DNA of 64,000 nt from contig OZ316895.1 in the NCBI GenBank assembly GCA_973895155.1, forward strand, positions 22,456,558 through 22,520,557, read 5' to 3'. Below are positions 3,001 to 43,416 of this stretch, one piece after another (within the stretch, counting starts at the first letter, position 1; each line of letters opens with the position of its first letter). This stretch comes from Marsupella aquatica (taxonomy: Eukaryota > Plantae > Marchantiophyta). The translations under genes were made by a program, and so were the position numbers. Below the pieces are notes generated by a model. The model saw nothing but the letters and a program-made list of their open reading frames with translations. It had not been told where the DNA came from and ran no database searches.

Positions 3001-6000
3001 CTTCTGGACACTTGCTTCTCTTGGGGCTACTGTGCTATTATATGGGGTTTCCATTTCCTCAGTTCTTTCTGATTTCTGGTTTTGCCTTGATTTATCAAAG
3101 CTGTCAATTTGTTCATTTTGTCTTCACTTAGAATGATAGAGTGAATAGTTAGAGTGGAGAGGAGTGTTAAGTGCTGAGTGATGACTTGAGACTATCGCAT
3201 AGTTGGCCCGTTCTAAGACACACCTATTTTAACTTATTCATAATAAAGTCTAGTCTATATGGAACTAGTTTATGAAATACAAGCTATCATATCCATTCAA
3301 GAATATTGAAACAATAATTATAAAAAAGTAAAGGGGAAAATGCATATCATGCATTAAAAGTGAAGAGATGTATGGTACTCTGGGGTGCACATTGTACAAG
3401 TCATTGTATTTTGTAGGTACAGTATTTTGTGTCTGAAAACCAAGTAAACCAGTTTTGTACCTTTCTAAAATTTGGGGGGCTTATTTAGGTAGGGCTTCTC
3501 TGTTTAGGTGACACCTATTGCCCTATAAACCATAAGCATTGCAATTGTTTTAAACAATAGACATATAAGCTACAAGGCATCTATGAATTGTGTCTAGTTG
3601 CCTGGTTGAATTTGGAGAGTTATACTAATGAATTCTCATGAAAAGGGAGGAGTGCCCTACAGCATAAATAAATAATAAAACTAGAGGAATACTAGAAGGT
3701 CCATAATAAAATGATTAATACAAGTGTAAGCATGTCTAGTTAAACTAAGGATTGAAAAAAGTTAAGGGGATTGGAAGAAATACTAAACTCAGACAAATAC
3801 AAAGTAAAAGCATAGAATAGACTAAATTGACATAAAAATATGTAACAAACAACTTTAATAAGACAAGATAACCAAAGGCCCTGCCATATAGCAGCAACAA
3901 AATAATCATACGGCACTAGCACTTTGCAACTACATCAGTCTTGGTTTGCTCTTGGATTGAGTTGAGCCCGGGTCTGCGACCTACAGCTTCAGGAGCTATT
4001 GATGTCTTGGTTTGCTCCTGGGTTCAAGCCTGGATCTGCAACCTACCATAGAAGGGCTCCTATATATATAAATATATTATGAAATTATGTTCAAATCACA
4101 GAGCAAATCAAAGGGACCCCTATCCACAAAAACAGTGAAGTTCAGTTCAATAATCTATTTCTGTCTAACAAAGATTTTCATTCTGAACACAGTGCAAAGT
4201 CATTCTACTACAAAAAAAATGTTGTTATTCCATGAGATTTCCAAGTGCAGTTGTGGCATGCAGATGACAATTGTTGTGGAGCAACAAAATTTTGGGTGTT
4301 AAAATGACATAGTGAAGGGCACAAAACTTGATTTGCAAGAGAATGGATCATCCTCCGTCTGATGGGAGCCACTAATTATTCTCACAGGAGAGATCATGAG
4401 TTGAAGGTCAACTGAAAAGATTTCTTGACACTCCAAAGATTTCAAATAATGGAGAACTATTGAGAATATTGATAGGTCCTACACCAATCTTGCTTGGCAC
4501 TCTGAGGTATGATGGGGAGTGTCTATTAGTCGCAGAACTTGACTACCTTAACACTTAGCTCTGGCGTCGTTGAGCTCACCTATGGTCCAAGCCTAGAACG
4601 ACCATCCGGGGAGGACTTAACATGGGGGGACTTGTGGGCAATGGGGTGTGGCACTGACAAAGGCAAGGCGCTAAGCTGGTGACACACACTAAGGACTTAG
4701 ACTAGCTGAGGGCTGGTCGGGTTCTGGGAAAGGGCTGGACTCAAGGTCAACCGTCCAGACCCCAAGACAAACTTTGAGTTCTAAGGGCTTGAGTGAGAGC
4801 TCCTTTTGGGCCAAAGGCTAATGGAGTTTACTTCATACGCAAACGGACGTTTGGGGCACGAGTCACAACCCAACCTAGGTTTGGCCGCTTGGGGCCCGGG
4901 TTCTGAGGGCCTAGGCATAAACACTAGGTCAGCCCGATCACAACGGGTTAAGGCACTCCATTTACGTACGCCTAACTAGAAAGTTATGGGCATAGTCAGT
5001 TGGTGGCGCGCCCAAACATATGAGTTGGGGTCCAGGTGGGGAGCCAAAATTTGGGGACCAAAGTAGGTCCGGAGGTGGCAGGTCTCCAGAAGCATATATG
5101 AAGGGAGTGGTGTCTCCTTGGGGGCTAAAGGCGAGCCGGAGTCGTGAGCCGCGGCGGTCACGACACTAAGAGAAAACCCCAAACGGAAACGACGATAACT
5201 TCCCAACGGGAAGTCCGTTGAAGGACTTCTTGGGTGCGTTGAAAATCTCTCAAGGAGGACTACATCCTCCTGAGCTCAACTGGGTCTAGAGGTGCCATGA
5301 GTTCTTGGGTTTACAGGGGCTATCTCGCTCGCTTGCCAAATCCTACCAAAACAATAGCCAAGCCGCGTTCAATCTCCCAATGGAGCTTGCATTGGGGAGG
5401 CAAGGCCAAGTAAGCATGGAGGTTGAGTTCTAAGGGCAATTGGACCCTAGGCCATCAGTGGGGTGAGAACTGCAACAATGAAGCTTTGACACATCCTACT
5501 GACAATGCTGGATTTTCCCCCTGGGCCCTCACTCCTTGTATATTATACAGTCATACCTGTGAGCCTCCCCTACACACGTACCCCTTCTTATTAATTTTTC
5601 TCCTATAGAGATTATCCTTGTTTTTTTATAAAAAAAACAAACATTTACTCTTATTAAAATATCTTCAGTGTATTACAAAAGTGAGTTTTGAGCAATAATA
5701 ATTATTCTTCATATATTACAATTTGTATTGAGCGATAATGCTTAACGCTGCCGGGTATGCTGCAATCTTTATATATGTAATCGAGTATGTAACTGGAGAG
5801 TTTTTTTGAAGACCAAGTTACCACTGGTCATGTATGTATATAACAGCTCTATAAAAGAGATGAAAATGGTAAGTCTTTATAAATCTAAAGACTGATATTG
5901 AATCAACTATTGAATCAGCTAACCCCGCAGCTAACCTAAGACAATACAAACCTAAGACTCCTGCCCACTGTCATGCCTTCCAATGCTGGTCTGCTTCATA

Positions 6001-6617
6001 AGTGAATAGTCACTTATGTGTACAGGCCATTCTGCTTGCCAAAAAATATGATTGTAAAAATGGGAAGGGACAATTGCAGGCAAATCATATGATTTTCGAA
6101 CAGAGATCACACTCCATAGCCCCTCCACACTTGCCTCTACTTCAGGAATCACAACATCTATGATTCCTAAACCACAACCTCCAAAACTCTCTTTAGCTAT
6201 CTCCTTGTTGCTCCACTCTTCTTTGCTGTAATCAGGGCTGCCTTTTCCCCTGTGCCTTCCTTGACTTTGGAACTCTGGAATAAACCACAACAACTGCTGC
6301 AGTTGTCAGACCTCCAGTACCGGGTCTGCTTCTCCTCCTGCTCAGTCTAGAGCGTTTCTTCATCACTGTTGTCCCCACCTTAGTCATCTCGAAGTCTCCA
6401 ATACACCTGATCCACAAATGGACCAACACCATGAATGAGTATTATATTGAATACAACCAGATCTACAAGGTTTACAGATAACATATCAGAATACGCTTAG
6501 GATGTTTTCAAATCTTAACTTGCTACCTTCGCTCCTCTGGAGAATGTGTTACCCCGGTGTGTAACTGATGAATGATAAACATCAGGCATGGAGTGTACCT
6601 ACCCCAAATACAGGTCA

Positions 6618-9600
6618 TCATTCTATGTTGTTCTTTACAAAATTGTCGAGGGCAGTCACATCATCTGGAGGCAACTTAAAAATAGTTGGATAGAGAGGAT
6701 CCACTGTAAAACTCACAGTTGATATGACACAGTCCAGGTTGTCTCTGGATCACACATATTATAAGCAAATTTGTTCCTACTAGACCCAACCGGTGTAAAC
6801 CAATTGAACACTACTTGACATGCAGCTTCGGAACCAGGTCTATCAAGTAGATCCAAAGGTTCTCTAGATCTGCAAACACTATTACCATACTTTCGGTGGA
6901 TGCTTTGCACCCTGCCAATCCACCAAACATACTTTGGCCCAGATGCAGAACACACTGCTACTGGATCTCCTCTTGGCTTCTTTGGATTGGTCACATTTTT
7001 TTTTGATTTCCTTCCACCTGCTTTCCCTTTGGATGCTTTTGCTACGGCCTCTGAGTTTCGAGTTGCCCTGACCTCATGTTGTGTTTCATCAAGGAAGAAA
7101 ACACCACAGTCAGTGCCCACTGTCATGAACATAGTTGGTACACCCTCTCTACAGTTGGGTTTGTCCACTAAATTATTGAAGTACACACTCTGTTTCACAC
7201 GAGTCAATCGGTCCTTACTCAAGTGGGGGTTTCCAATCAGCTGGCTAACCAATGTACTTTTGTAGATCTGTCGCTCTTGAAAACACACAATTGGCTTCAC
7301 TTGCTTAATTGGTGCACCATACAACAAGTCTGAATGCATGATATTCATTGTTGCAGACAATTCGGAGGCAGCTTCCTCTACATGAGCGTCTACGTAACGG
7401 ACAGACATCCCAGGGAAGGAACTCTCAATCTCAGTCTCAGCGCCAGCTACAATCCCCAGGGTGGTAACAATAGGTGAAGCTTCCAAAATCATTGTATCAA
7501 TCTCAGTGACAGTTTGAGGTTGGGCTTCACCATTCAAAGCAGGTCGTACATCTCGAATGTCCAAAGTATCTCGTACATCTACAAGTGTATCCACATTGAT
7601 GTCACACCATCCACCAGACTTCACCCCTTTTGACTCAACTTTCCACGGTGAGTTCCACCATAGCTTATCCTTGCAAGATGTTGAAGGATTCATTTCCAGC
7701 TCAGTTGCAACACATTGTGCCAAACTTAATCCCTCCTGCAATGCAACCACGATTGCTGCATTTGTCTCTATCCCTGTATAATCTGTCTGATCTGGACAGA
7801 CATGAACTGCCTCTGAATCTAATTGAAGATCCATCCAAATGTTTGAATGCTTTTTGTGGCTCTTTCCAGCACCCATCAATCCCTCTGATACATCCATTGC
7901 AGCCAATCTGTTAAGATTAGTGGCACACTCCACTAATTCTGACAAGTCATAGCTTCGCTCACGACCGTTCATGCCCCCTACTTTTGAGAAGAATTGCTCA
8001 CACGCATCTGAGCCAGTCAACTCTAGAGGCACTGGAAGATGCTTGAAGTGGTCTCGGAATTGGATTATCAACAGAACTATAAAATGGACTGACATTTGAA
8101 CATCAAGAAAGGTTTGCATAGGGATACAGTTCCGCATGAAAGTAATTGGTTGTGTATTCCCCCCTACAGTATGGTTCCCATGGAAGCACCATAGGCGCCA
8201 CAGTCTGAAGAAGAAACCCACCTTCCCACAAAGTACAACCCTCTCCCGTAGAGTGAGCCGAGGGTTCATGAATATATCCAGATAATCTCCACATATACGA
8301 ACAAACACCTCAGTTCCAAGTGCGAGCTCCACCCTTGCATCCTTCTGCAGACGCAACATCCTCAGCGTAGAACCCGCCTTACGACTACAAATCCTTTGTG
8401 CACTAGCCCAATTTTGCCTATCATTTTGTGGTACATCATCATGGTTCAGCCCATGAAGGTCATGGTCATATAAACCTAACAGGAGTCTCAGATGACTCAG
8501 GTTGGCCACTTGAGTCCCCAGTTTCAATATCCGAGCTGAAGAATCCAATGGGTTCACTAACTTCTTCCCATTGTGGATATAGTCTTGGTCATGTAGCCCA
8601 ACAGCGTGGGTCAATGGCCCATCACCTGTCATAGAGTGGCTCAATTTCCAGCCTTCCCACCCAAGGCTAAATCTTGGCCCTGCCTTCTGACAGCCAGTAT
8701 AGTCCTCCAACATTAACTTCCTCCTGCGTGCATCACCGTCACTTGCATGGCCGAGTAAAGGCCCCACACTCTCCAGACAATGAGTGTTCCACAATGACTC
8801 CAGGATATCCCACTGCTCTCTAACCCAAGGAGCTTTAAATCTATTACATGTACCTGTAGCTAGTATAAGCAACCGTGGGAATCCCTCTGCAAGGGGATTG
8901 ACTACTATACAACGAGCCATCTGCCCTACCACATTGTTGTCAAAAGCATCAACGATGATGTGGAAGCCAAGTTCTCCTTCGCCCACTTCTATCTCCCACC
9001 CAACAAGGCATACATGCTCTGTTTGGGTGCCGCAAAACCCAATCATGGTGTCATGTTTTGGCAGCCACCTACAAGAAACCAAAACTGAGTTCATCACCCT
9101 ATTCATTAAAAGTGTATTTTATTTTGTTCACTTTTAGGCCTCTAAATGTTCACTTTTTGGTCTCTAAATGTACACTTTTTAAACCCAAAAGGTACACTAT
9201 AGTCCAATACTCTACACCTAAATGGTGAATTATAAACTTGAGGACACAAAAATGATCTTTACTGGAAGGAGTCTCATCCTAGTTCATGTACAAAGGATGA
9301 ACATGGTGGTATATTTGATGGTCATCACCTTTATTTCTTGCCCAATTGTACACTTTTTGAAAGCCAAATGTACACTTTCTATCACCCAAATGTTCAGATT
9401 TTGAATAATAATTCACTTTTAATGAATAGATTGATGTTCTTGGTTTCCAGATGGAGCCTACATAATAGTTGAAACAGAGATAAAGGTGAAACTAAGATCC
9501 AACACCATGACATGACTAACATCATGCGTGAGGGCCTGAAGTACAACATCATGCATGAGGGCCTGAAGAAAGTACCTTACTGTTTTTTTGACAGTGGTCT

Positions 9601-11703
9601 CATCTTCTGCCAAATAACAGGGAACTGGCCCTTTGATGTTGAGTCTCTCTTTCAGTTTGGAGTACACTTGAGAGACAAACATAAATTGTTCAGCATGGAT
9701 TCTTGCTCGGAATACTGCCATCCCTCTTCTGTCCCGTTGAAGGGTGTTTATGCTTGGCCCTATCCCATTACTTGCAAGGCAGTCAACAACACGTCGACCA
9801 CCATGCAAGAAGAGTGTTTGGCAGAGAAGCTTTGTTCCAGCCTTGAACCTATATCCCTCCTTTGTCGTATTCAAGTTTGAAGCTATATCAGATAACATAT
9901 CCCACAATGCACCTCTCCCACCAAATGCACCCTTCCTGTGCGCAAGGACTATGGACTGACAAAACTTAAGGATAGATTCCTTATTGGGGCCTTGATAGTC
10001 AAGACAAACTTCCTTTATACTAGGGATCCGAGACTTCAGCATCAACAGTTTGTGACTTAGATATTTCTGCAACTTCCTCTCTCTCAAAATTCGGTTTCTG
10101 TATACTTTAGCTTGGTTTTGGACCTCAGGAATTGTGAGGCAACCTAGCCGCCTGCCCTTGCCAGTCCCTCTCTCTCCTCTTTTCTCATAGGCCTTGACCT
10201 CTCTTGCTACCCGAAGTCTGAAGTCCTTCATGTTCTTAATGGAATAACACTTGGAACACGTCAAATCATCAAACCCGCCCCCCAACTGTGACATTCGACT
10301 ACATTCTTTATGCCTGAAAAGGCCCTTGATCTCACAAGCTTCTTCACTATACATACAGAACACCTCTGCCATTACTAGGGGCTCTGCATACCATGCACCA
10401 CCCACTTTCACCTGGTCGTGTAGGTGACTTTTGATAGGCCTAAGTTCTGACCCTACTTCTATCTCATCCCGCCATAGACCCCAACACAACAATGACAAAT
10501 TATCGAAAGTACCTCTATCATCATCTCATGCTGACATCCTTGACGAGCTGCTTGATGCACCTGCAGTCGAGGTGCGAGTCAAGAACCCCTGAATTTTTCT
10601 CTGTTTCTTATCCCTCCCGTCTACAGTACGGGGTCTGCCAGGGCGCCCTGACAAAACTGGCTCGTTTCTTGTAGGCCTCTGACTTTTGGCCACATAATCA
10701 AGATGGATCAAGCCAGTACAATGGCTTGTCAGATTAGCCTCCAAGTTTCATTGTTTGGGTACCAAAGTCAAATGGTGAAGACAAAAATTGTAGAACAGTT
10801 TCAAAGTCTGGAACTCCACTGGTTCCTTATGGACATCCCCCTCGACTATAAACGTCTCGCGACCAACTGTCTGCAACTCGTTGACCTTTGCTACAATCTT
10901 CAAATGCTCGTCAAGCATGGCTCTATCAGTCAAAGTATTTGACTGTGCCCTCCTTGCAATCTCCACATGCCCAACTTCTCACCCCTGTTCCTAGCCACCC
11001 GAGCTGCATGCTTTGATGATCGCAAATGCGAATTTTTGAAGTTGGTAAATGCATTATTGATGGATGATTTATCCATCAATGTACCTTTTTGCTAGCCCTT
11101 CCACCCGCTTGTCACACTCACAACACTCGATATGCCCCCAGGGCATGTTGTCTTTGTCCCAAGTTCTCACTTTCCACTTGTGGTCAGCACATTTAATGGA
11201 TTCCATGTGAGTCTTCAACTTATCCGCAGATGCTTCCCATACTGCCTTTAAAGTATTGCTCATAAGAGTGGACATGAATGTGACTTGTTGTTCAGGCTCT
11301 GGCAAGGGGCAACCAGAGTGTGGATCAGCTTCCACTGGAGGCTCCTCATTCATGGGAAAATTGGCATCATCACTCTCTGGCAATGAAAGGCCATTGGAAG
11401 CATTGCTACTTCTTGCCCTGCGCCTCCAGGGTCTATGTGCACCAATGGGGTTGGAGGCTCCAAGGCATTTTTGGGAATGATAACAATCTTTCCCCCACAA
11501 TCCTCCAAAAGATTGCAGATCTCCCATTTCTCCGGCATCCGAGTGGCGAGATTGACATCAATAAAGTGGAAGTCAAAATCGAGTAGTGCCTCCAACTTCA
11601 GTCGGGCATCAGCATACGATTCCCCTGCTTTGTAACTATATGATGATATAGGTTTCCTTTCCCCACCTTCTTTGTCTACTTGAAACAAAGTGGCAGGCGG
11701 CAT
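6618..11703 (-). pseudogene. Large DDE transposase (P-element/THAP9-like core, N-terminal zinc fingers), disrupted by frameshifts and a stop
   Basis: Consecutive minus-strand ORF pieces from ATG 11703. GT-AG intron 9575-9069 joins 'AEDETTVKKTVR' to 'WLPKHDTMIGFCG'. Motifs GPSINTLQR, LAEDETTVK, ASDGDARRR, QDYIHNGKK, DRQNWASAQRICS and GSDACEQFFSKVG parallel P-transposase LPSxxTL, DE, SD, HxxK, DxQxVxxA and QDxxExFF. Two CxxC...HxxxxxH fingers near the N-terminus (the second degenerate). Frameshifts near ~11400, ~11075, ~10970, ~10750 and ~6745; in-frame TGA at 10526. Reconstructed C-terminus ...LDNFVKNNIE* ends at 6618. Confidence 0.8.
9092..9436. mobile_element. MITE nested in the transposase intron
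   Basis: Imperfect TIRs CATCACCCTATTCATTAAAAGTG (9092-) vs reverse-complement CATCAATCTATTCATTAAAAGTG (-9436). Internal repeats of TG(T/A)CACTTTT. TT on both flanks (possible 2-bp TSD). Confidence 0.7.
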
Positions 11704-11979
11704 TCTCTCACCCTTTACTGACAACCTATCCACCTCTCATGGGCCTGCGCACAGTCCACATGACAAAGGGAGCATCAACATAGGGATTGCTCAAAATAGG
11801 ATAGGTTCATTTCATTCTAACCACATATTCACCCAAAATGCAACTTTCTTGGGTGGCATGGCGCAACACCACACAATGTGGACATCATGTGCACCAATTC
11901 TTCTACTAGAGACAGGTTACAAAGATGTTAGGCAGATTGATGATTGTTGGCCAATGCGGGAAACAAGCAACCTGGCCTA

Positions 11980-12363
11980 TTAGAATGGGCCAACATCCAA
12001 AGGAAGTCTATGGAGGGCCTGCGTGCGACAGGTATTAATCTGATAGTTTAAACAAACCGCCCCAATTCTCATTTCAACTCGATCAGTGGCAAGTGGATCC
12101 CTGAGCTCATTGATAACATCTTGGATGTCATCAAGAAGGAAGTGGTACTCATTCAAGCCACACGGAAATATGAATATGGCTTTCGCCCGAGCAACAATGA
12201 GACTGTAGAATGTGATCCAGCCTTTTGACCTCTGCCGAAAGGCCTCCAAAGCCATGCCAATTGCATTCTGCTGACTACGTATAAGACAGGCTGGATCTTT
12301 ACCGTTGCTTGTTGAAGGCAATGGAATTGTGTGAGAGAGATAGAAAGGAGGACAGAAATTCAT
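11980..12363 (-). CDS. Unknown 127-aa ORF inside the transposon
   Basis: ATG-initiated uninterrupted ORF with ordinary protein-like composition, same orientation as the transposase. No recognisable motif. Confidence 0.4.
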   Translation of the reverse strand: MNFCPPFYLSHTIPLPSTSNGKDPACLIRSQQNAIGMALEAFRQRSKGWITFYSLIVARAKAIFIFPCGLNEYHFLLDDIQDVINELRDPLATDRVEMRIGAVCLNYQINTCRTQALHRLPLDVGPF

Positions 12364-12752
12364 GATATCAAAGCAAAGTAGGCTACCAAGATTGGTTATA
12401 AGGCAATATTAAGCAACCCACACGTGGAGACCGCATCCACTGGACCAATCCCACGAGAGCCTTGCCCCATCCTGACCATTTCTCGTTAGGATTGGCTGGT
12501 TACAGATCCATTGCTGCTTTCTCCGACATGTGTCGGGTGGGAAGGGCGTACCCTTTGCATGCAAGGACTCCAGATTCAGCGTAAGCACAAGAGGGACAGG
12601 GATCTGCACATGGCCATTTCAGCTTGCCCAAGTTTAGCTTGTCCCAATTCAGCTTGTCCCATATGTGCTTGGTCCATATACAGTCGGGGCCAGGCCCACA
12701 CTCCAATCCTTCTCCTCCACAGTTGTGAGGGCCACAACAGACTATACATGAC

Positions 12753-14499
12753 TTAAGGGGCTGACAACAATGACAAGTGACAACCATGGACACAATAATG
12801 ACAGGCTCTAATCACACACTCCCCCAGGCAACCTGCTTCAAAATTACAAGGAGCACTGGACTGCCAGCGGCTAAATCCAGCAGTCGCCAATGGGGGCATG
12901 ACTTCCCCATGGTCTCCTTGAACTCGATGGGCCCTGCAAATTAAACGAGTCCTACATGTACAAAAAATGACAAAACTGAAATGACATCTTACCTGAGCAA
13001 GATACAAAGCCCCGTGCATTAGCAGCTTAAAACATATGAACTATATAAGAAGCGGTAAATAATGGAGCACAATTGAAAGAACCACAAAGTCCAGAATATG
13101 TACATACCTTGGACTAGAGTTTTTGGACCTCTGATAGAATGGTCCGCCAAGTAATGCAGCTTGAGGGGGCCGGGCCGGTAGCAGCTGCGTTGGGCACAAG
13201 CTGGTATGTTGCATGATAATGTTCAAACGTTAGCTCAGACGTTTCAAAAAACCAATGATGCAGGGGTCACAACACACAGCAACATTTGTTTTGAACACGA
13301 TGGCAAAAAGGAAATGACTACCTTCCTAGTTGGGGGATAGCAGTTGCCTTGTACCACACCTCCGTCAATACCCCTCCTTCAATACCAAACTCTCGTCCAC
13401 TGGACTCACCGCTACCACAAGATCCATTTCCAAAAAGAGCGTTAGTTGACAATCTTTGAAAGGCCACCAGCATATGTATGTGTTCGTGCCATGCCTTTGG
13501 GTCATATGGCAGAATAGTCATCATCGAATCCCTTAAAAGAAACTCAGACTGCCAGGGCCGAGGCTGACATACAAATACATAATATACTGATGATAGGTGA
13601 TACAAAAATTAGTGTTGGCATCCGCTCATACACTCTTACAAAATGACCATTCAAGAGGTCATGTGAACTGCTAACTTGGCTATCATCCCTGCACAAACTA
13701 ATCTCCTGCGTAGACTAACAATCTACGCAATTTAACCTCCCTATGCATGTACCTACTCGCCATCTTGAAGCTCTACAAGGCCTAACACAAAAGGGTCCGT
13801 GTTCCAGAGTTGACACACTTTCCAGGCCCTCTTTTTTGCAAAAACCTCATTGTACTTAACGTCCGCATCTGGATCTACATCACATGCTGGACATCGAGCA
13901 TCCAAAGCATGTACACACCCTGCACCAACAGTGATCTGAACACCATTCATCGTCTGAGTGAACATAATGGACTGTGGATCGACATACTTTTCCCACATGG
14001 TCTGGCGGGTCATACGGGATGGACGATTAGAACCAAACATAATGCCAATAGGCCAAGTCCCTCTCAACATGCCTAATGCCTTTAGCTTACGCCGCAACCT
14101 CACTGCTTTCTCATAGAGAAGGCCTACAGATTGGCTTCGGGTGGTTACCATGGTGTCTTTTGCACCGTTACCTCCGTAGAAGGCAAAGACAGAGGGTCTG
14201 AAAATCAAGCCTACCAAAGCTGGCCCACACGACAAATCCTCCTGCAACAACATCGTCCGGTGTGTCACTCACTGTACTATAAAAAGGGACAAACTGAGCA
14301 TCACAAATTGCAAACAGAGCGAATGTTTCAGGGATTTGGTTAACTTACTTGGCCTCTAGAAATCGACAAAACTTCCCGCTCCCACAACTTCGTGTGGAGC
14401 TTTGGATTTGTTACATCAAAGCTCCTTGAGATCCACCTCTCCCCAACCTTGATGATTCACCTAAAGTTTGCTGCAGAATTTTGGGCAATGGTAGCCATC
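12753..14499 (-). pseudogene. Multi-exon accessory gene of unknown function inside the transposon, partly decayed
   Basis: Minus-strand exon-like blocks (~14499-14350, 14268-13753, ~13564-13321, ~13201-13108, ~12952-12753) bounded by GT/AG sites. The last three join in phase 2. Contains CVHALDARCPAC and CHYCVHGCH; in-frame TGA/TAG stops in the 5' exons. Confidence 0.45.
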
Positions 14500-15879
14500 C
14501 CAGATTAAAATTTGTTTATCAAACTCAACTGCACAAACTGCAAATGAATACCTTGTGGCCTTAACCCTTGACGCAATACAAGTGACCAAGGAAGTTCATT
14601 CCTGATTGGTGCGTACCTCAGTCTCCTTTGTCCACTGATCCTCTGGTCGTGACCCGGGTCCTCAAAGCTGAATCTTCCTCAAAGCTGAATCTTCCAACCT
14701 CCACTCTGCTCAACTAAGCCCGATGGATGATCACTGCAGCTGCTTACAAATGTCTGCGACCAAACCAGGAAAAGCGTTACTTACAGACCAACACCCTAGC
14801 CAGTGAAGGAGCTGCAAATGGAGTCCAAAAAGTGGTGGAAGATTAAGTATGAGAGCAGACCTAAGGCAATAGCAGAAGGCAAGTCAGAGCAGAATAAAAT
14901 AAGACATAGGAAGCCGGGGAGGAATCAGAAGTGCGATGGCAAGCGCTTCAACCTAAGCGCAGAAATTAAGAGCTTAAGAAGTCCTAGAGACGGTTGCTAA
15001 AGGAACTCAAGAGCAATTGCAACATCCGAGGCAATGCCATTTGGCGATATATAGTGAATGCAATATCGTCAACCAAGAAATGCAGTTCACTTGAGGGACT
15101 GTCACTACATTCAGGACTACATCGCGTGGGTTTTGTTCAGTCTAATGCAGGGAGAGGGTTACCTTGTTGCACCAAACCGGAAGGTGATCGCTCCTTAGCC
15201 TTCCAGGGGGTATCCTTTGATGATATCTGAAAAGGCCCACAGGCATCAGCTAAAAGCACGTAAACTCTACATCCATCCTTCCATTGAGAAACTCTCTCAA
15301 CATTGAAAACCAGATGGCTTACCGTGCTCAATTGATGTGTCCACTCCCAGAAGAGTCAACACGCAACACTGAAGCTTTCACTATCTCCTTCGATCACTGG
15401 GTTTCTCAAAAATGATCTGCAAGCAAAACATCTCCACAATGAAGCACTCAAGCTGGCAGCGTTTGCAAATCCAATGAAATGTCACTCATGTCGATCGCAT
15501 CAAGATCTTAAGGATAGTCACAATGACTTAGAACAATCCATTGAAATCCAGCCAAATGCATTCGCAGTCAAAGGCATGTAAATCCTACAAATCACAATGC
15601 AGTGGCGTGCAAATCCGCAAGTTGGCACAGTTACAGCCAAATCCAGGAAACATTGAGGCAACACATAGAACATTGAAGACATAACCGGGGAGATAACAAT
15701 GCATGCCAAAAATGTGGAAGGTTCACAGAGCATTTGAGTGGGTGAGATTGAGACGACCTTGACAATCGCAATGTCGGGGAAGATCTTCCAAACTAAGGAC
15801 CTTCAAAGCCAGCACTCAGCGATGCTGGGCAAGAGCAAGAACAGGCAAACGAGGGCCAACAATGCCGGATGCGGATCGA

Positions 15880-16040
15880 CAATGGTGGACAAGGCCAAAG
15901 CAGCAATGGCGGACGAGGAGCAGCAATGGCGGACAAGGAGCAGCGATGGCAGAGGATCGATGATGGTGGACGAGCAGTGATGGCGGTCGAGCAACGATGG
16001 CGGCCGAGCAGCGATGGCGGACGAGCCAGGAGCAAGCAGA
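15880..16040. repeat. GC-rich degenerate tandem repeat (GACGAGCAGCGATGGCG-like, ~18-21 bp) in the transposon's right-end region
   Basis: Repeated gcagcaatggcggac / gcagcgatggcgg units. A telo-box-like AAACCCTAAA lies at ~16150. Confidence 0.65.
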
Positions 16041-17598
16041 AGGCATCAGGGAGCGCGAGCGCGAGGTGAGGTGAGACCGAGCGCAAAGGAAGAATGAGGA
16101 GCAGGGGTACGAGGGGGGGCTGACCCCGGGCGGTGACGGTCTCACGACTAAACCCTAAACCTTAGGGTTCATAACGTAGGTGAGGCCATGGATCGCCGAT
16201 TCAATGGCTTCGATTCGCTCTCCCTCTAATCCAACGGTTTTAGTCATCCCCGATGTGTTTTCTTAAATTCCCCGCCAAAACCCCCACCACTCCACACACC
16301 CGGTCCATCCCCATTGCCCCGGGATCGCCCCCAATCCTCCCTTCAAAACTTTTCTAGCTTAGCATAGCCAGTATTAACATTTTAATTTATGAAGGAGATA
16401 TGGATACTGTAAGGATAATACACGTGTACCAATTATAATTTGACACGTGTACCAATAATATGATGTCGCGTGTCGCTACCTATTGATTTACCCTTCCGCA
16501 AAAGTAAGCAGGATGACATTTCAAGGGGTCTTACGAAATTACAAAGTGGTTTCGGTATATATGCGGTGGTTGCGGAATTGTAAGCAAATTATAAAAATTA
16601 CCGCCGAAGGGATAAAAATGACCCTTGAACGGTTCTCACGTCCTCCCCGTATTAGAAAGGAGTGGGGGCCCAGGGGATTTTCCCTTGAGTTCAAAATGCA
16701 GGTGAAAAACCATGGTCTGTGAGGACATCCCACGCACCATTATCTTCCCAACATCCATCTCTAGTATGCCATGTTCTCTCCTTAGAGCATGTCCAACATG
16801 AATCATATTTTGTCTTGTAGTGATGTGTAAGTGTCTATTGCATATTCTTTGATAGAATTGAGTGGGAGAAGTAAAGCAAACACATGCCAAATAAAAGTAC
16901 ATTTCACATAATGACCAGGAAAAGTTCAAATGCACAAGTCTTGAAAAGTTGTGCACATAAGATAGAGATTCTCACTTGCCCTTTTGATACTGAAATTATT
17001 AAAAAGTTGTGCACATAACTTAGAGAAGATACTCCCTTGCCTTAGGTAATGACAATAAAAACCATAAGCATAGCAAATAGAAGTATGAGGAGGACTTAAA
17101 GGAGGATTGTCCATATCTCAAAGTATCAATTTTCTCTCTCATTCACTAGAATTGGCAGAAATTTCCATACAAATTGCTATGCTATTGTAGTGGGAAAGGA
17201 CAGCTCTAGGGTGGCAAGATTAAAAATGTTTAGACGTGTGCCAAAACAATTTAAAATCTAAATCATACAAGTGATGCGCATTGTGATGCACATTGAAAAT
17301 AAAATACATAACAAAAAATCTTAGTAGGACAAAATAATGAAACGTGGATTGGCCAAAGAGGTGTAAAAAAAAACACTCTTCCCAGTTGTCATCTCTGGTG
17401 TGCCATCTTCAGTCCTTACACTTTCTCATCACCACCCCTCCCAAGGATGTCCAAGCGGAGACGCAGCCCGTCCTTACTGAAAAAATAAAATGATAAATAA
17501 AATGATGTAGTAGTGATAGGTCTTGCAGAAGCAGCATACGCGTAGTTTCGGCTGGGTTACAGATGCTTGTTGAAATTTCACAGAAAACAAAACCACTT

Positions 17599-38818: not shown

Positions 38819-41800
38819 CTACTTAGAATGGGACACTCCAGTGGTATCAACCCTCTCGTAGAAAATCAGATATGCCTCACTTTGCAGCACTGCGTCCAAG
38901 TTGGTCTGATGCACATGTGAATCACTGATATAGTACCATGATGATGCTTCACCAGACGTACTTTGTGTGTCATTCCTTGGGTTCTGTGCTGGGGGACCTC
39001 TAACGAACGCAACGTAGTGACCACTCTTGAGTGTACCTGAATGCTCCACAGTTCCAATCAGGCGGTACTTGCAATCGTCATTAACATACCTGCATTGATC
39101 CACAGTTATCGTGTCAACATCCTTGTAAGGCATGCCATTGTTGGACGCTTCATTTGAAATGCAGTATCACCTGGCCACCTTTAATCTTAACATACACCTA
39201 GTAGTGACTAGAGAACACATTCCCTGAATGCCTCAATTATTGAGGTTAAACGTCTAGTAGTAAGCTTGGTGAACGATTGGCAGATACTAACGTTAGTACA
39301 GACGGCAATCAAAAGGAAGGTTGGAATGATCTTACCAACTCAATCACGAAACAAGAAACAAAACTAGTAGAAGAAAGAAAAGTACCTGTGATCCAAGAAG
39401 GGGTGCAGGTCGAGCAACTCTTGAAAAGCAACATGTCCACTGAGTTTACTCAACCGCCCTCGCATGTCTTGGGCAAATCGCTTCAGCTGTATGGTCAACA
39501 CCGGTGGAGCCCTGCTTATCAAAAAACGCTTTGTCGCATCCTGTTTAATGACCTTCTTTTGCTCCTCTTGAACCTTCCTACTCTTAGACTTCTTCAGTTT
39601 TGAAATCTTAGCAGAATTCCGAGTACTAACTTGGCTCGATTTCTTTCCAGTCTGAGAGACATTCATCTCTACCTCTGGCTTCTCATTACCAATCTCCTCG
39701 CCTCCTACTCCACCACTGTAGGTCACGACCTCAGGACCTAAAAGCGACCTTGATTCACCACTAGAACTAACTTCATCATCGGGCTCACTTCTAATTACTG
39801 CCCCCCGTAGAGGGACTGGCTCAAATGAGCTTAGGCTGGAATTAGTACCAACTATTTCAGCGTTATCCGACAGCCCATCTTGACAAGCGTCAAGGACCTT
39901 GTCAGATGGAGCAGCATAATCTTCTCCCCCGTCCACATTACCATTCAATTCAACTGATACAGAAGCCTCCAACTCAGCAATCTCCAAATTACTGGACGAA
40001 GTTATCTCTCCCGATTGGTCAAAATCGGAACCTTTCCTGGACGAGCAAACATTGCTGCTTCGTTCCCTGTCTTCATAGCCATCACGTAACATTGAATCCC
40101 CTATGGAAGGAACTTTGCTAGACCCATTGCTACAGTAGTTACCACTCCCATCCTTCGTGACACTACTTTTCGTCGATGGTTTCTCTGGCACTGCGGTCGA
40201 CTTCTCCTCGTTTGCGAGCCACTCATGATACTTCTTGGTGCAATTCTCACAAGCCCAAGCATTTTCACCAGAAAGAAGCTCTGACCTGGTGAACGTCTGG
40301 AGACATCCTTCAAGAGACATTGAAGTCTCAGCATTCTCTTCACCTTGCCCCTCTTCATGGGAGACAAGCCAATCTCCCCTTGCTTCACTACTAATTTTGC
40401 TCAGATCAAGTACATCATCGAAAATAATCCCGTCATACGCACATTCTTGGAAATCTGGTCCACTCTGATTGAAAGGTAATGGGCCGTATACCCTGTCTTC
40501 GTTGCTGTCTTCTTCCTCGAAGAGTGAACTTACACCATCGTATTCCCCTTCTAATTCCACGTTTACGAAATCACTGGCCGAAACACTGTCAACTGGAGGG
40601 CCCAGTAGGATAACCGTACTTCCATTCGGCCCACTGATGATATCCGACTGTGTACTTGTGTCATCATTCCAGTCTCCAGACTGCTCAACACAAATATTGC
40701 TACCATTCAGGGACTCTGACACCGGGGTGGAATCCAATTCAGCTTCTTGAGTCGCATCAGAGGCATGGGTTTCACTGCCTCCCCTCATCTGCACCGGCAT
40801 GTCCATTTCCTGGACTCTAAGTGCCCTTAACCCGGACCCACACCCCACAGTCGAAGGATTCTTGGACTCAGCAATTGCTTCCTTGGCTGCCTCCAGAAGC
40901 ACAATACTTTCACCGAAGGTAGCATCTAACCTTTGGTTGATTATGTTTCCGTTTGGGAGAGAAAATGAATCTGCCCCTTCACCATAACCGCGCTCCTCAA
41001 ACTCCATAGAACAGGGAATTCCATCGGCTGGTGGACTCAAAATGCCTTTGCCCTCCGATGCGACCGAAATCGCTGACGTTTGCTGCATCAAATCCGGATT
41101 AGGAGCACAGCCAAATACTATTTCAGACTCAAGATTAGGTGCACTCTCTTGCACGGTTTGTGATTCCGGATTTGGAGCGCACCCAATAATTACTCCAGAG
41201 TCCACTTCCCCGTCGTCAGATAAAAAATCCAACCAATCAGCCTCACCCGATCCAGTGCCTGCATCTATGTAATCCATCCAATCAAGGTTTGAATCATTGG
41301 CGGTATTTCCAGAATCACAATTGTTATCCTTTGGATGTGGCGCTGGTAGTAGCAGTAGAGGAGTTCCAAGACCAGCAGGTATCGGTCTGAAAGATTCTAA
41401 GTCTGAATCCGCCTTGGCTTTAGCCTTTGAACTCTTAAAACCCTGAGCCTTTTGAGTCTTACTCTGCGCAACTGAAGAACCGTTTGCCAAAGCTGAAGCC
41501 TTCTTTGGACGCTGCTTATTTGAGGGAATAGGCAAGGATAGATCCAGAAATGATTCATACACAACAGACGAATGCCCACATTCACAACAACTGACAGTGC
41601 TCGAAAGCTGACCACCGAAAGCCCTTTCCACAAAAGTTTCTGGTCGTGCCCCGGTCTTCTGCTCACCGACACCCCTCTCCGTCGTGCTTTCTGTGTCCTG
41701 CCGAAGAGAACCTAAATCCTCCACGTCGTCGACCTCGGTATTGGTGCCATTTTCACGTGCATCAGTTTCGGAGAGTGCACGGAGGGCGTCCTCTCCCCCA

Positions 41801-43092
41801 CCAGTTTTTGATTTCAAAGATCCTTTCAGTGCGTTCTCCTCCTCTGTGTGTAGACCATCCAGTAAGCACCTCAAAAGCTCATGGCTATCCTGCTGTTGAA
41901 AACCTTTAAAACGAGGGGCTTTAGAACATATTGCACCAAAAAGGCTCTTAGGGTTGTAAGTGCCATCAATAGAACTCCAGCCTCCACGAATCCCTTTTGC
42001 GTTCTTTTTCAATCCAGCTTCCGGGAGTTGACTATTCGCTTCAGAAGGGGATTGCAAGCTGGCTTCAAGGAAAAACTTCCTCAGGGAAGATGTCAAGGCA
42101 CCTTCAGGTAAAGATGAACCTGGACCAAACTGACTACGCAACAATTCCACACTGAGCAAATTCTGCATCACAGAATTAAAGAAACAGGTGTTGCCAAGGT
42201 TAACCAGTCCTTTCATCACTCTTTGGTTTGGGGTATTGGGTGCTTCGGATTTTTCAAGCACAACACCATTTTCAAACCCCCTTGGAGAATGAGGCTTCTC
42301 TGCCTCGTCAGATCCATTAGTATGGTCTGTGGAGTCCTCCTTAATAACCGCAGATTGCTCTGCGAGTTTCTCTTGTATCAACGATGCCGCCTGCTGCAGC
42401 AACATATCTCTGGATGGGGATGGTGAAGCCTCTTCCTCTCCTTCTCTCGAAATGGGATTCTCAGGTTCCGGAGGTACATCCTGATCAAGCTTCACTTCCC
42501 TTACCTCATGGGCAACCTCACATGAAAAACACCAGAATGAGAATTCCTCTCCACACAGCATCACCAACGGATGCTTCAATTGCAGCCAATGCTGCCAAGC
42601 ATGCCCCCGACCTACTACACCCTGTTTCACCTCATGTTTACTACGCTCTCCTCCGATCCTTACACTCCCTTCCCCGCATCCGACTTGGCCACAAAAAAGA
42701 CAAATCCACAGCTTGTAATTGGATTTTTTCTCATCCCCCAATCCCGAAGGCGGTGGAAGTTGTTTCTTCCTCACTACCTTACTACCTTTGCCACCTTTCC
42801 GTTGTTCCTTACCAGCGGAAACCGCTGACCGAAGCTTGGTACAATCCTGGCAATGTATCACCGTCGATTTTGCCAGCTGATTCCGGAGTTTTTCAAGGCT
42901 CGGCCCGTGGGGACACACTGTGCGACCGTTGTCCACTGCGGCACCACCGTTCTCCGCACAGCGCAAGTTTTCGGGTGGGGCCACAGTTGAGAAAGAGGCG
43001 GCAGTGTTGCTGGACGACGATGGTGAAGACCTAGATGCCTTACTGGCCGGGCTTCCACCTTGCACTATTTTCTTCTTCGCCCTCTTCCCCAT
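38819..43092 (-). CDS. UBP2: Ubiquitin-specific protease, UBP1/UBP2 (USP16/45) type with ZnF-UBP domain, ~1325 aa, 2 exons
   Basis: ATG 43092 (MGKRAKKK); exons 43092-39386 and 39089-38819 joined in phase 2. ZnF-UBP (LWICLFCGQVGCG, HAWQH, WCFSC), Cys box GLVNLGNTCFFNSVMQ, QQDSHELLR, FLDLSL, LTIQLKRF, His box HSGTLKSGHYVAFVR, WYYISDSHV, AYLIFYER. Confidence 0.95.
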
Positions 43093-43320
43093 GATGACCC
43101 GCTGCCAATGCCGGCCTCCGCCGCCACCGCAGAGATCAACCGCAGGAATGCAGTGCGCACCGTCGTGTGCGCTCGCCGATGCCCTCAAATTCTTGCATCC
43201 CGTGCAGAACTGCTCTCTCGTTTTCAAGATATCTGTAAAAGTGGAAATTATACCACAAGTGTTGAAAATGTGCTCCTTAAACGTACTCTGACCAATCCGC
43301 AAAAACTTCCTCTCAATTCT

Positions 43321-43416
43321 ACCCGTCTATCGTCAGTTTTCTCTCTTCCCTGGGTGCTGTTGACGCCCACCCGTCTATCGTCAGTTTTCACTCTTCCCTG
43401 GGTGCTGTTGACGCCC
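43321..43416. repeat. Near-perfect tandem duplication, 2 x 48 bp, in the UBP 5' region
   Basis: ACCCGTCTATCGTCAGTTTTC(T/A)CTCTTCCCTGGGTGCTGTTGACGCCC twice. Confidence 0.9.

Follow-up and report, generated by a model that had tools for sequence, protein, structure and literature searches.

A decayed DNA transposon of the liverwort Marsupella aquatica with a predicted P-fold transposase

A stretch of 64,000 nucleotides from the liverwort Marsupella aquatica (GenBank assembly GCA_973895155.1, contig OZ316895.1, positions 22,456,558 to 22,520,557; hereafter the window) holds a decayed DNA transposon of the cut-and-paste type, which ends in CCC and is flanked by a target-site duplication (TSD) of 8 bp. 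Its transposase is predicted to adopt the fold of the Drosophila P element enzyme, and the element likely represents a divergent P branch that lacks the THAP domain, has a long history in seed-free land plants and occurs in animals as well. A probability of about 0.85 is assigned to this reading. An earlier examination of the letters alone (the sequence-only reading) had proposed an undescribed P-related lineage; the relation to P is now backed by fold, profile and Atlas comparisons, and literature searches at the level of titles found none that describes the lineage.

Ends, target site and mobility

The transposon occupies positions 5519-16675 of the window and measures 11,157 bp. It is bounded by 19-bp terminal inverted repeats (TIRs) that agree at 18 of 19 positions: the TIR at the 3′ end of the transposase gene starts with CCC (5519-5537, plus strand), and its inverted-repeat match lies at the 5′ end of the gene (16657-16675, minus strand). 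The TSD, GATTTTCC, abuts them as a direct repeat at 5511-5518 and 16676-16683. A TIR pair accompanied by an 8-bp repeat would be expected about 5e-6 times by chance in the window, and no second copy of the element was found within these 64 kb. The window alone is ambiguous, since CCCC ends with a 6-bp TSD would fit it too. Copies were therefore examined in contigs of public sequencing runs, labelled X1-X5 and X8. Foreign flanks stop before position 5519, ending in T (X2), A (X3), G (X4) and, in two other cases, C, and two read contigs, in X1 and X3, begin exactly at 5519. Because of these flanks and contig starts the terminus is CCC and the TSD 8 bp; readings with a 6-bp or a 9-bp TSD were rejected. 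The TIRs, TSD and CCC ends of the sequence-only reading (5511-16683) are thus confirmed both in the window and by the flanks of other copies.

Further contigs document movement. One X3 contig is an empty site, with the left flank running into the right flank through just one target copy that has diverged slightly; this site may be allelic, from a related organism, or may be paralogous to the host repeat holding the element. In X2 and X3, position 5724 is joined to 16288, which marks a derivative of 594 bp that has lost its interior. Read depth, which does not equal copy number, is several-fold higher at the element ends than in the body, and in X5 the body is evenly covered at about 200-300 with zero cover of the far flanks. 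X1 carries the window junction without differences and may be the source sample of the window sequence; the longest listed X3 and X5 contigs diverge from the window by about 0.5-2.6%. Mobility is recent and comes with derivatives resembling MITEs (miniature transposable elements with inverted repeats), in seed-free plants. A stationary host gene or pseudogene flanked by chance repeats could draw on the inverted repeat, which at 18/19 matches is expected about 0.3 times by itself, yet this explanation is refuted by the empty site, the multiple flanks and the deletion derivative, and two independent relatives described below, L002 and L041, have equal architecture.

The site of insertion (4100-5500 and 16700-17400) is itself a high-copy repeat, with depth reaching about 96,000. 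Within the element, a GTGA motif lies 37-41 nt from the terminus in four of seven ends examined (window positions 5559 and 16639, and both ends of L002), and it is a candidate internal site for transposase binding. Nine 8-bp target or flank sequences could be compared: G is first in five and C is last in five. So small a set hints only faintly at a preference for palindromic targets, of the kind known from P.

The transposase gene

The coding span runs from 11703 to 6618 on the minus strand and comprises about 1,525 codons with one intron, which bears out the transposase of roughly 1,500 aa first proposed. Exon 1 (9576-11703) encodes an N-terminal domain of about 80 aa, the fingers, a Cys/His module, a coiled coil, an HTH (helix-turn-helix) and the first catalytic D. 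Exon 2 (6618-9068) supplies the remainder of the RNase H core, the insertion domain, an acidic linker and the C-terminal domain. The intron (9069-9575, GT..AG, 507 nt) was placed correctly by the sequence-only reading, and splicing joins EDETTVKKTVR to WLPKHDT exactly as in homologs. It shrinks to 160 nt when a nested MITE is subtracted. This MITE (9089-9439, no strand assigned; 347 bp with inverted arms and a 4-bp direct repeat) belongs to a separate, abundant family and is absent from other copies of the element, in which the joint runs from 9088 to 9436 (X2, X3 and X5). Its TIRs of about 22 bp start with ATCA, and its depth is very high in X2, X3 and X8.

The window copy of the gene is dead. 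Four frameshifts, near 11411, 11075 and 10960 in exon 1 and near 6740 in exon 2, together with two in-frame TGA stops in exon 1 (10748-10750 and 10526-10528), make it a pseudogene; the first Cys of the second finger has also been lost. The protein aligns end to end with an unnamed 1,529-aa protein of Calypogeia fissa at 47-58% identity. In contigs from X2, X3 and X5 that cross the frameshift sites, the indels fit in size, with 7 nt at 11411 and 2, 8 and 4 gap letters in contigs spanning the others, so intact copies probably exist.

Predicted fold and catalytic motifs

Single-sequence searches of Pfam and the PDB missed P entirely, and the relation was reached through a broader profile and through folding. 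An AlphaFold2 model of the homolog P0005, which is 44% identical to window exon 2, has a mean predicted local distance difference test (pLDDT) score of 73, with most of the core above 85. Foldseek returned the Drosophila P transposase (6p5a) as its best match (E 4.1e-11, TM score 0.73 of target), followed by RAG1 at 3.7e-4. VIA-align superposed the same chain over 413 residues (chain range 129-569) with Z 22.8 and a root-mean-square deviation (rmsd) of 4.4; the runners-up were Transib (Z 9.6), ISCth4 (8.1) and Hermes (7.9). Among 48,161 chains the P transposase was the sole one at Z>=8. The best structural match is therefore P, as the sequence-only reading had anticipated, with Hermes (hAT), Transib/RAG and ISCth4, a relative of Mutator, a long way behind. 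A profile of 63 family rows likewise placed 6p5a first in the PDB (E 0.0021); its alignment takes in the HTH and first D as well as some of the insertion domain, and for the HTH ahead of the core it covers 6p5a residues 96-247. For the window's own core, the top ESM Atlas clusters were P transposases (0.94), and the 10 best family-bearing matches all agreed. The matching clusters (0.93-0.94) comprise THAP9, Galileo, 1360/ProtoP and protist or fungal P-like proteins (PF21787, PF21788, PF21789 and PF12017).

All five motifs named at the outset (AEDE, ASDGD, HNGKK, DRQNW and SDACEQFF) are present. The first catalytic D (AEDET, 9602-9604) lines up with the P transposase motif FDEM. The second (SDGD, 8738-8740) is D in 63/63 rows, and the His of the D(2)H or HxxK motif (8573-8575) is H in all 63, with a D three residues before it in 60. 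The third acidic residue, the E of SDACEQFF (7997-7999), is E in each of the 59 rows with a residue at that position; all four codons lie on the minus strand. D(2)H is described as a P signature in the available part of PMC3698922. The resemblance to Drosophila melanogaster P (6p5a, 6pe2) extends to the order of coiled coil, HTH and split RNase H with a helical insertion domain, as well as to a short TIR, an 8-bp TSD, a 3′-terminal G and internally deleted non-autonomous copies.

An aberrant hAT or MuDR member with an 8-9-bp TSD would also explain some of these features: the 8-bp TSD and short TIR fit hAT, a 9-bp direct repeat can be read in the window alone, and the C2H2-like fingers recall BED fingers. 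In hAT, Transib/RAG1 and ISCth4/Mutator-like enzymes, too, a helical insertion domain accompanies the RNase H fold. However, they reach only Z 7.7-9.6, with Hermes at 7.9 and ISCth4 at 8.1 against 22.8 for P, and gave no family-specific Pfam matches; neither hAT nor MULE was matched in overlapping sets of 28, 48 and 23 scanned members. Unlike MuDR/Mutator elements, the family has a TSD of 8 rather than 9 bp, fixed with the CCC boundary, and TIRs of 19-26 bp that are not long. Structural comparisons largely refute this alternative, which is very improbable. Kolobok targets TTAA, which was not seen as the target of the family elements. Kolobok, Novosib and KDZ have no Pfam models according to the portion of PMC5751038 that was available.

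Departures from P

The family differs from P most plainly at the N-terminus. The N-terminal THAP domain of animal P elements is not known to be a defining feature of members outside animals. The absence of THAP claimed by the sequence-only reading holds: there is no Pfam THAP match in the members scanned, and a THAP-like pattern occurs in 0 of 83 long proteins among the best 150 of 5,246 profile matches. In its place are an N-terminal domain of about 80 aa, two C2H2-like fingers and the Cys/His module. Among the 12 full-length plant-type members, a CxxC..H-x5-H finger is found in all, and the second finger, judged by eye, has CxxC in eight and CxxD in four. The CWG/FRHxxC..CxxC module is present in 11, and the remaining one is cut off. 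The two fingers and Cys/His region noted earlier recur in these plant-type members; the window copy has lost a Cys of its second finger. For the N-terminal 520 aa, nothing usable came from the Atlas and the PDB profile search had no match; a ubiquitin-like fold of the first 80 or so residues is a tentative impression. The available text of PMC7776569 describes THAP as absent from plants.

Size, spacing and ends depart as well. The family enzymes have about 1,500 aa against 751 in P, and the elements measure 6-11 kb against 2.9 kb. The median distance between the first and second D is 121 residues in 95 members and 73 in P, about 48 aa longer; the residue numbers for P come from the accessible part of a bioRxiv preprint. 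P elements typically have 5′-CA termini. Those of the family are CCC in the window, L003 and L041 and CTC in L002, within longer ends of the form C(C/T)C..ACTCC. Galileo and 1360 have a 7-bp TSD (PMC3698922, in the part available), which was not seen in the window element, L002 or L041, all with 8 bp.

The insertion domain is present as a fold, which upholds one half of the GTP-binding insertion first proposed. The other half is doubtful, as most of the contacts with guanosine triphosphate (GTP) are not conserved on a weak mapping. P is reported to contact GTP through K385, K400, V401, S409, F443, D444, N447 and D528 (PMC7776569, in the text available). In a weak 63-row alignment, the equivalent of K385, mapped by a one-residue extension, is G in 49 rows and K in 6, that of K400 is N in 30 and D in 27, and that of V401 is W in 34 and V in 14. 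The same alignment gives S at the S409 position in 28/62 rows, V, L or I at F443, L, M or F at N447, and at D444 E in 20, S in 12 and D in 9. Only the D528 equivalent, mapped by its spacing to the catalytic E, is well conserved (D in 55/61 rows), so that on this mapping one of eight contacts persists and those of K385, K400, F443 and N447 are not kept. Because the mapping uses a weak alignment, the loss of GTP contacts serves as a lead only. The aligned residues tip the balance modestly toward an insertion domain that would not bind GTP in the manner of P.

The long C-terminal extension of the sequence-only reading is present and appears to end in a BAH-like barrel, predicted for window positions 6630-7135 (minus strand) from a model of the relative L002. 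The last 150 or so residues of this model (52 rows) fold as a β-barrel with pLDDT 79.5, and a whole-protein model agrees with that of the isolated domain. The six best VIA matches are all BAH domains (Z 6.8-7.2, rmsd 2.5-3.2 over 77-87 residues, 9-20% identity), among them those of Arabidopsis EBS, AIPP3 and ORC1b, and also DNMT1 BAH1 and ZMET2, with chromo-barrel and Tudor folds scoring nearly as well. Several aromatic columns, candidates for the methyl-lysine cage of BAH domains, are conserved, and a Pfam BAH match was recorded in one member at E 3e-5, below the cut-off. The domain is likely BAH-like, on structural matches that are not decisive. That such a barrel contacts chromatin and biases the choice of target is a tentative suggestion from the model. 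No BAH-bearing DNA transposase was found in a title-level search of the literature.

These departures could also mark a separate superfamily, the sister group of P, which would share the fold and differ in ends, DNA-binding module, cofactor use and C-terminal domain. The missing THAP-like motif, the spacing of 121 against 73, the single well-conserved GTP contact and a TIR motif common to plant-type and coral-type members, with C(C/T)C rather than CA ends, would all suit such a rank. The domain order, D(2)H, 8-bp TSD and terminal 3′ G nevertheless match P, a Z gap of 13 separates P from the next family, and profile and Atlas reach P directly. Superfamily rank is also partly convention. A separate superfamily is accordingly regarded as improbable.

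Family members and hosts

Homologs of the transposase are numerous. Among 7,997 scored candidates, a single-sequence query recovered 45 and a profile query 197, and in 1.84 billion sequences the profile's matches came to 5,246 cluster representatives at E<=1e-3, of which 860 passed E<=1e-30. The named hosts are the liverworts Riccia sorocarpa, R. fluitans and Calypogeia fissa, the moss Ceratodon purpureus, the fern Adiantum nelumboides and the coral Desmophyllum pertusum. Seed plants are not among the named hosts in the homolog lists, in which most rows are nameless. The land-plant lineage proposed earlier is thus supported by liverworts, moss and fern, but it is not plant-specific. In contrast to THAP9, Galileo and similar P-like elements, the family counts land plants among its hosts; the available parts of PMC3698922 and PMC5751038 report P from insects, Trichomonas, Ciona, vertebrates and a few fungi. 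A quick IQ-TREE run on 61 core sequences gathers every row that bears a land-plant name into a single supported 25-row clade, and the window element groups with Calypogeia in a clade of six.

The family is large and nearly invisible to Pfam. Tnp_P_element (PF12017) exceeds the cut-off in 1 of 48 members; weak PF12017 and PF21787 matches occur in a few members, and the Pfam models miss nearly all others. Distant members (P0056, P0079, P0081 and P0096) carry extra domains, namely Tudor (PF21743), C1_2, SAP and a weak UCH. No viral relatives were found: 37 pattern matches in viral contigs yielded none that was confirmed, and viral protein models gave none.

Independent elements were sought at 76 metagenome loci, of which 34 long ones were scanned automatically for a TIR and TSD. 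L002 is a 6,096-bp element with a perfect 26-bp TIR starting with CTC, an 8-bp TSD and an intact, intronless open reading frame (ORF) of 1,493 aa. L041, of non-plant type and located by motif, measures 7,503 bp and has CCC ends and an 8-bp TSD. These independent members thus show the same type of TIR and the 8-bp TSD; they also make the length of about 11 kb, correct for the window copy, untypical of its relatives at 6.1 and 7.5 kb. The ends of both read C(C/T)C...ACTCC, and across 35 loci the motif C(C/T)C-G-run-ACTC faces inward seven times and outward twice; L031 and L024 have outward-facing motifs. The G-run-ACTCC motif also occurs in the non-plant (coral-type) loci L034, L041, L050 and L052, so coral-type transposases may be what mobilizes short, abundant elements whose ends are of this kind. 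The coral CMITEs were considered and set aside as unrelated piggyBac/TTAA elements (PMC2872659, in the part available). Seven AT-rich loci (L009, L010, L020, L021, L024, L036 and L037) contain a recognisable transposase, and family-type ends were not found within 10 kb; they are possibly old copies or domesticated genes.

Repbase or Dfam may already list the family, either under P or with unclassified elements that have an 8-bp TSD, in which case the reviews would lack only its link to land plants; this would be compatible with a divergent P branch and concerns novelty. Repbase has P entries beyond animals, 17 of them fungal (PMC5751038, as far as available), and the family is abundant, corals included. 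On the other side, named members in NCBI and UniRef go by uncharacterized, hypothetical or unnamed, except for two that bear automatically assigned domain labels. Plant reviews list six (PMC9033089) and seven (PMC10741241) TIR superfamilies without P in their available text, and no title describing the family was found in the literature, although Repbase, Dfam, subscription papers and genome-paper supplements may hold members. Prior cataloguing is, on the whole, somewhat unlikely.

Several observations weigh against a divergent P branch or its proposed features. The structural alignment with P shows no more than 14-15% identical residues, the folded model is that of a relative and not of the window's own protein, and no Pfam match was obtained for the window ORFs or for 10 full-length plant-type members. 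Positions inside P and sister to P would both be compatible with the comparisons made. The local alignment behind the GTP-site mapping has an independent E-value (i-E) of 78. The BAH Z-scores lie within the range that the tool calls common and chromo-barrels tie with them, and Foldseek of the barrel gave no match. Among the 34 long loci the automatic scan found a clean TIR and TSD pair only in L002; eight long plant-type loci (the seven AT-rich ones above and L069) gave none, and the remaining long loci gave none or doubtful ones.

The upstream region and neighboring genes

Between the gene and its 5′ TIR lies a region of about 5 kb (11704-16656, minus strand) with GC-rich repeats, exon-like ORFs and a nested repeat, for which no homolog was found. 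Extra ORFs had been noted here by the sequence-only reading. Two of four candidates (13756-14268 and 11983-12408) have an in-frame codon bias like that of the transposase and the other two lack it; with no Pfam, protein or locus match (one protein search being limited to longer proteins), they stand as candidates only. A second, decayed gene in this region is possible. Reading these ORFs as an Ulp1 protease was weighed by eye and found no support. The stretch before the ATG is about 0.7 kb in L002 and about 5 kb in the window, over which X5 depth equals that of the remainder of the element.

In each of the four runs, depth over the nested repeat (12425-12900) is elevated and its ends are loose; a Cys-rich frame and tandem units of 15 bp overlap it. 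Close to the 5′ end, a GC-rich array of units of about 17 bp (15838-16025) is followed by a AAACCCTAAA box near 16150; judged from their sequence, the two together look like a promoter and 5′ untranslated region. Elsewhere in the window, an unbroken ORF of 1,319 codons (39370-43326, minus strand) encodes zf-UBP and UCH domains, and host genes include AtTam38 (19.5 kb), PGK (24.9 kb), a mitochondrial carrier (35.4 kb) and an RRM gene (57.9 kb).

Proposed mechanism and significance

By analogy with P, we infer cut-and-paste transposition by a P-fold enzyme of predicted activity, supplied from intact copies. Such a copy would provide the enzyme of about 1,500 aa, and its zinc fingers and HTH, instead of THAP, would bind the element ends. 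Binding would be followed by pairing, excision and integration as in P (PMC7776569): the D-D-E site would excise the element and insert it elsewhere across a stagger of 8 bp, and the 594-bp internally deleted copies would be moved in trans. Excision of P itself leaves a 17-nt 3′ overhang. A more ambitious proposal depicts a large, ancient group, sister to or deep within P, in liverworts, mosses, ferns and corals, with GTP-free chemistry and BAH-steered insertion; in its entirety this is unlikely.

The divergent P-superfamily lineage in land plants adds the P superfamily to their TIR superfamilies, since the counts of six and seven in the available text of PMC9033089 and PMC10741241 omit it. 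It also exposes a large class of 'hypothetical' proteins overlooked by Pfam-based annotation. A need for GTP has been described as unique to the P transposase; with a P-fold enzyme in which most GTP contacts appear to be missing, one could test whether this cofactor was there from the start or was acquired later. If the barrel proves BAH-like, a cut-and-paste enzyme carrying it would represent a new route to chromatin-guided targeting. L002 offers an intact 6.1-kb relative with a single ORF that is usable for experiments, and intact intronless copies of this kind are a potential tool for plant gene delivery.

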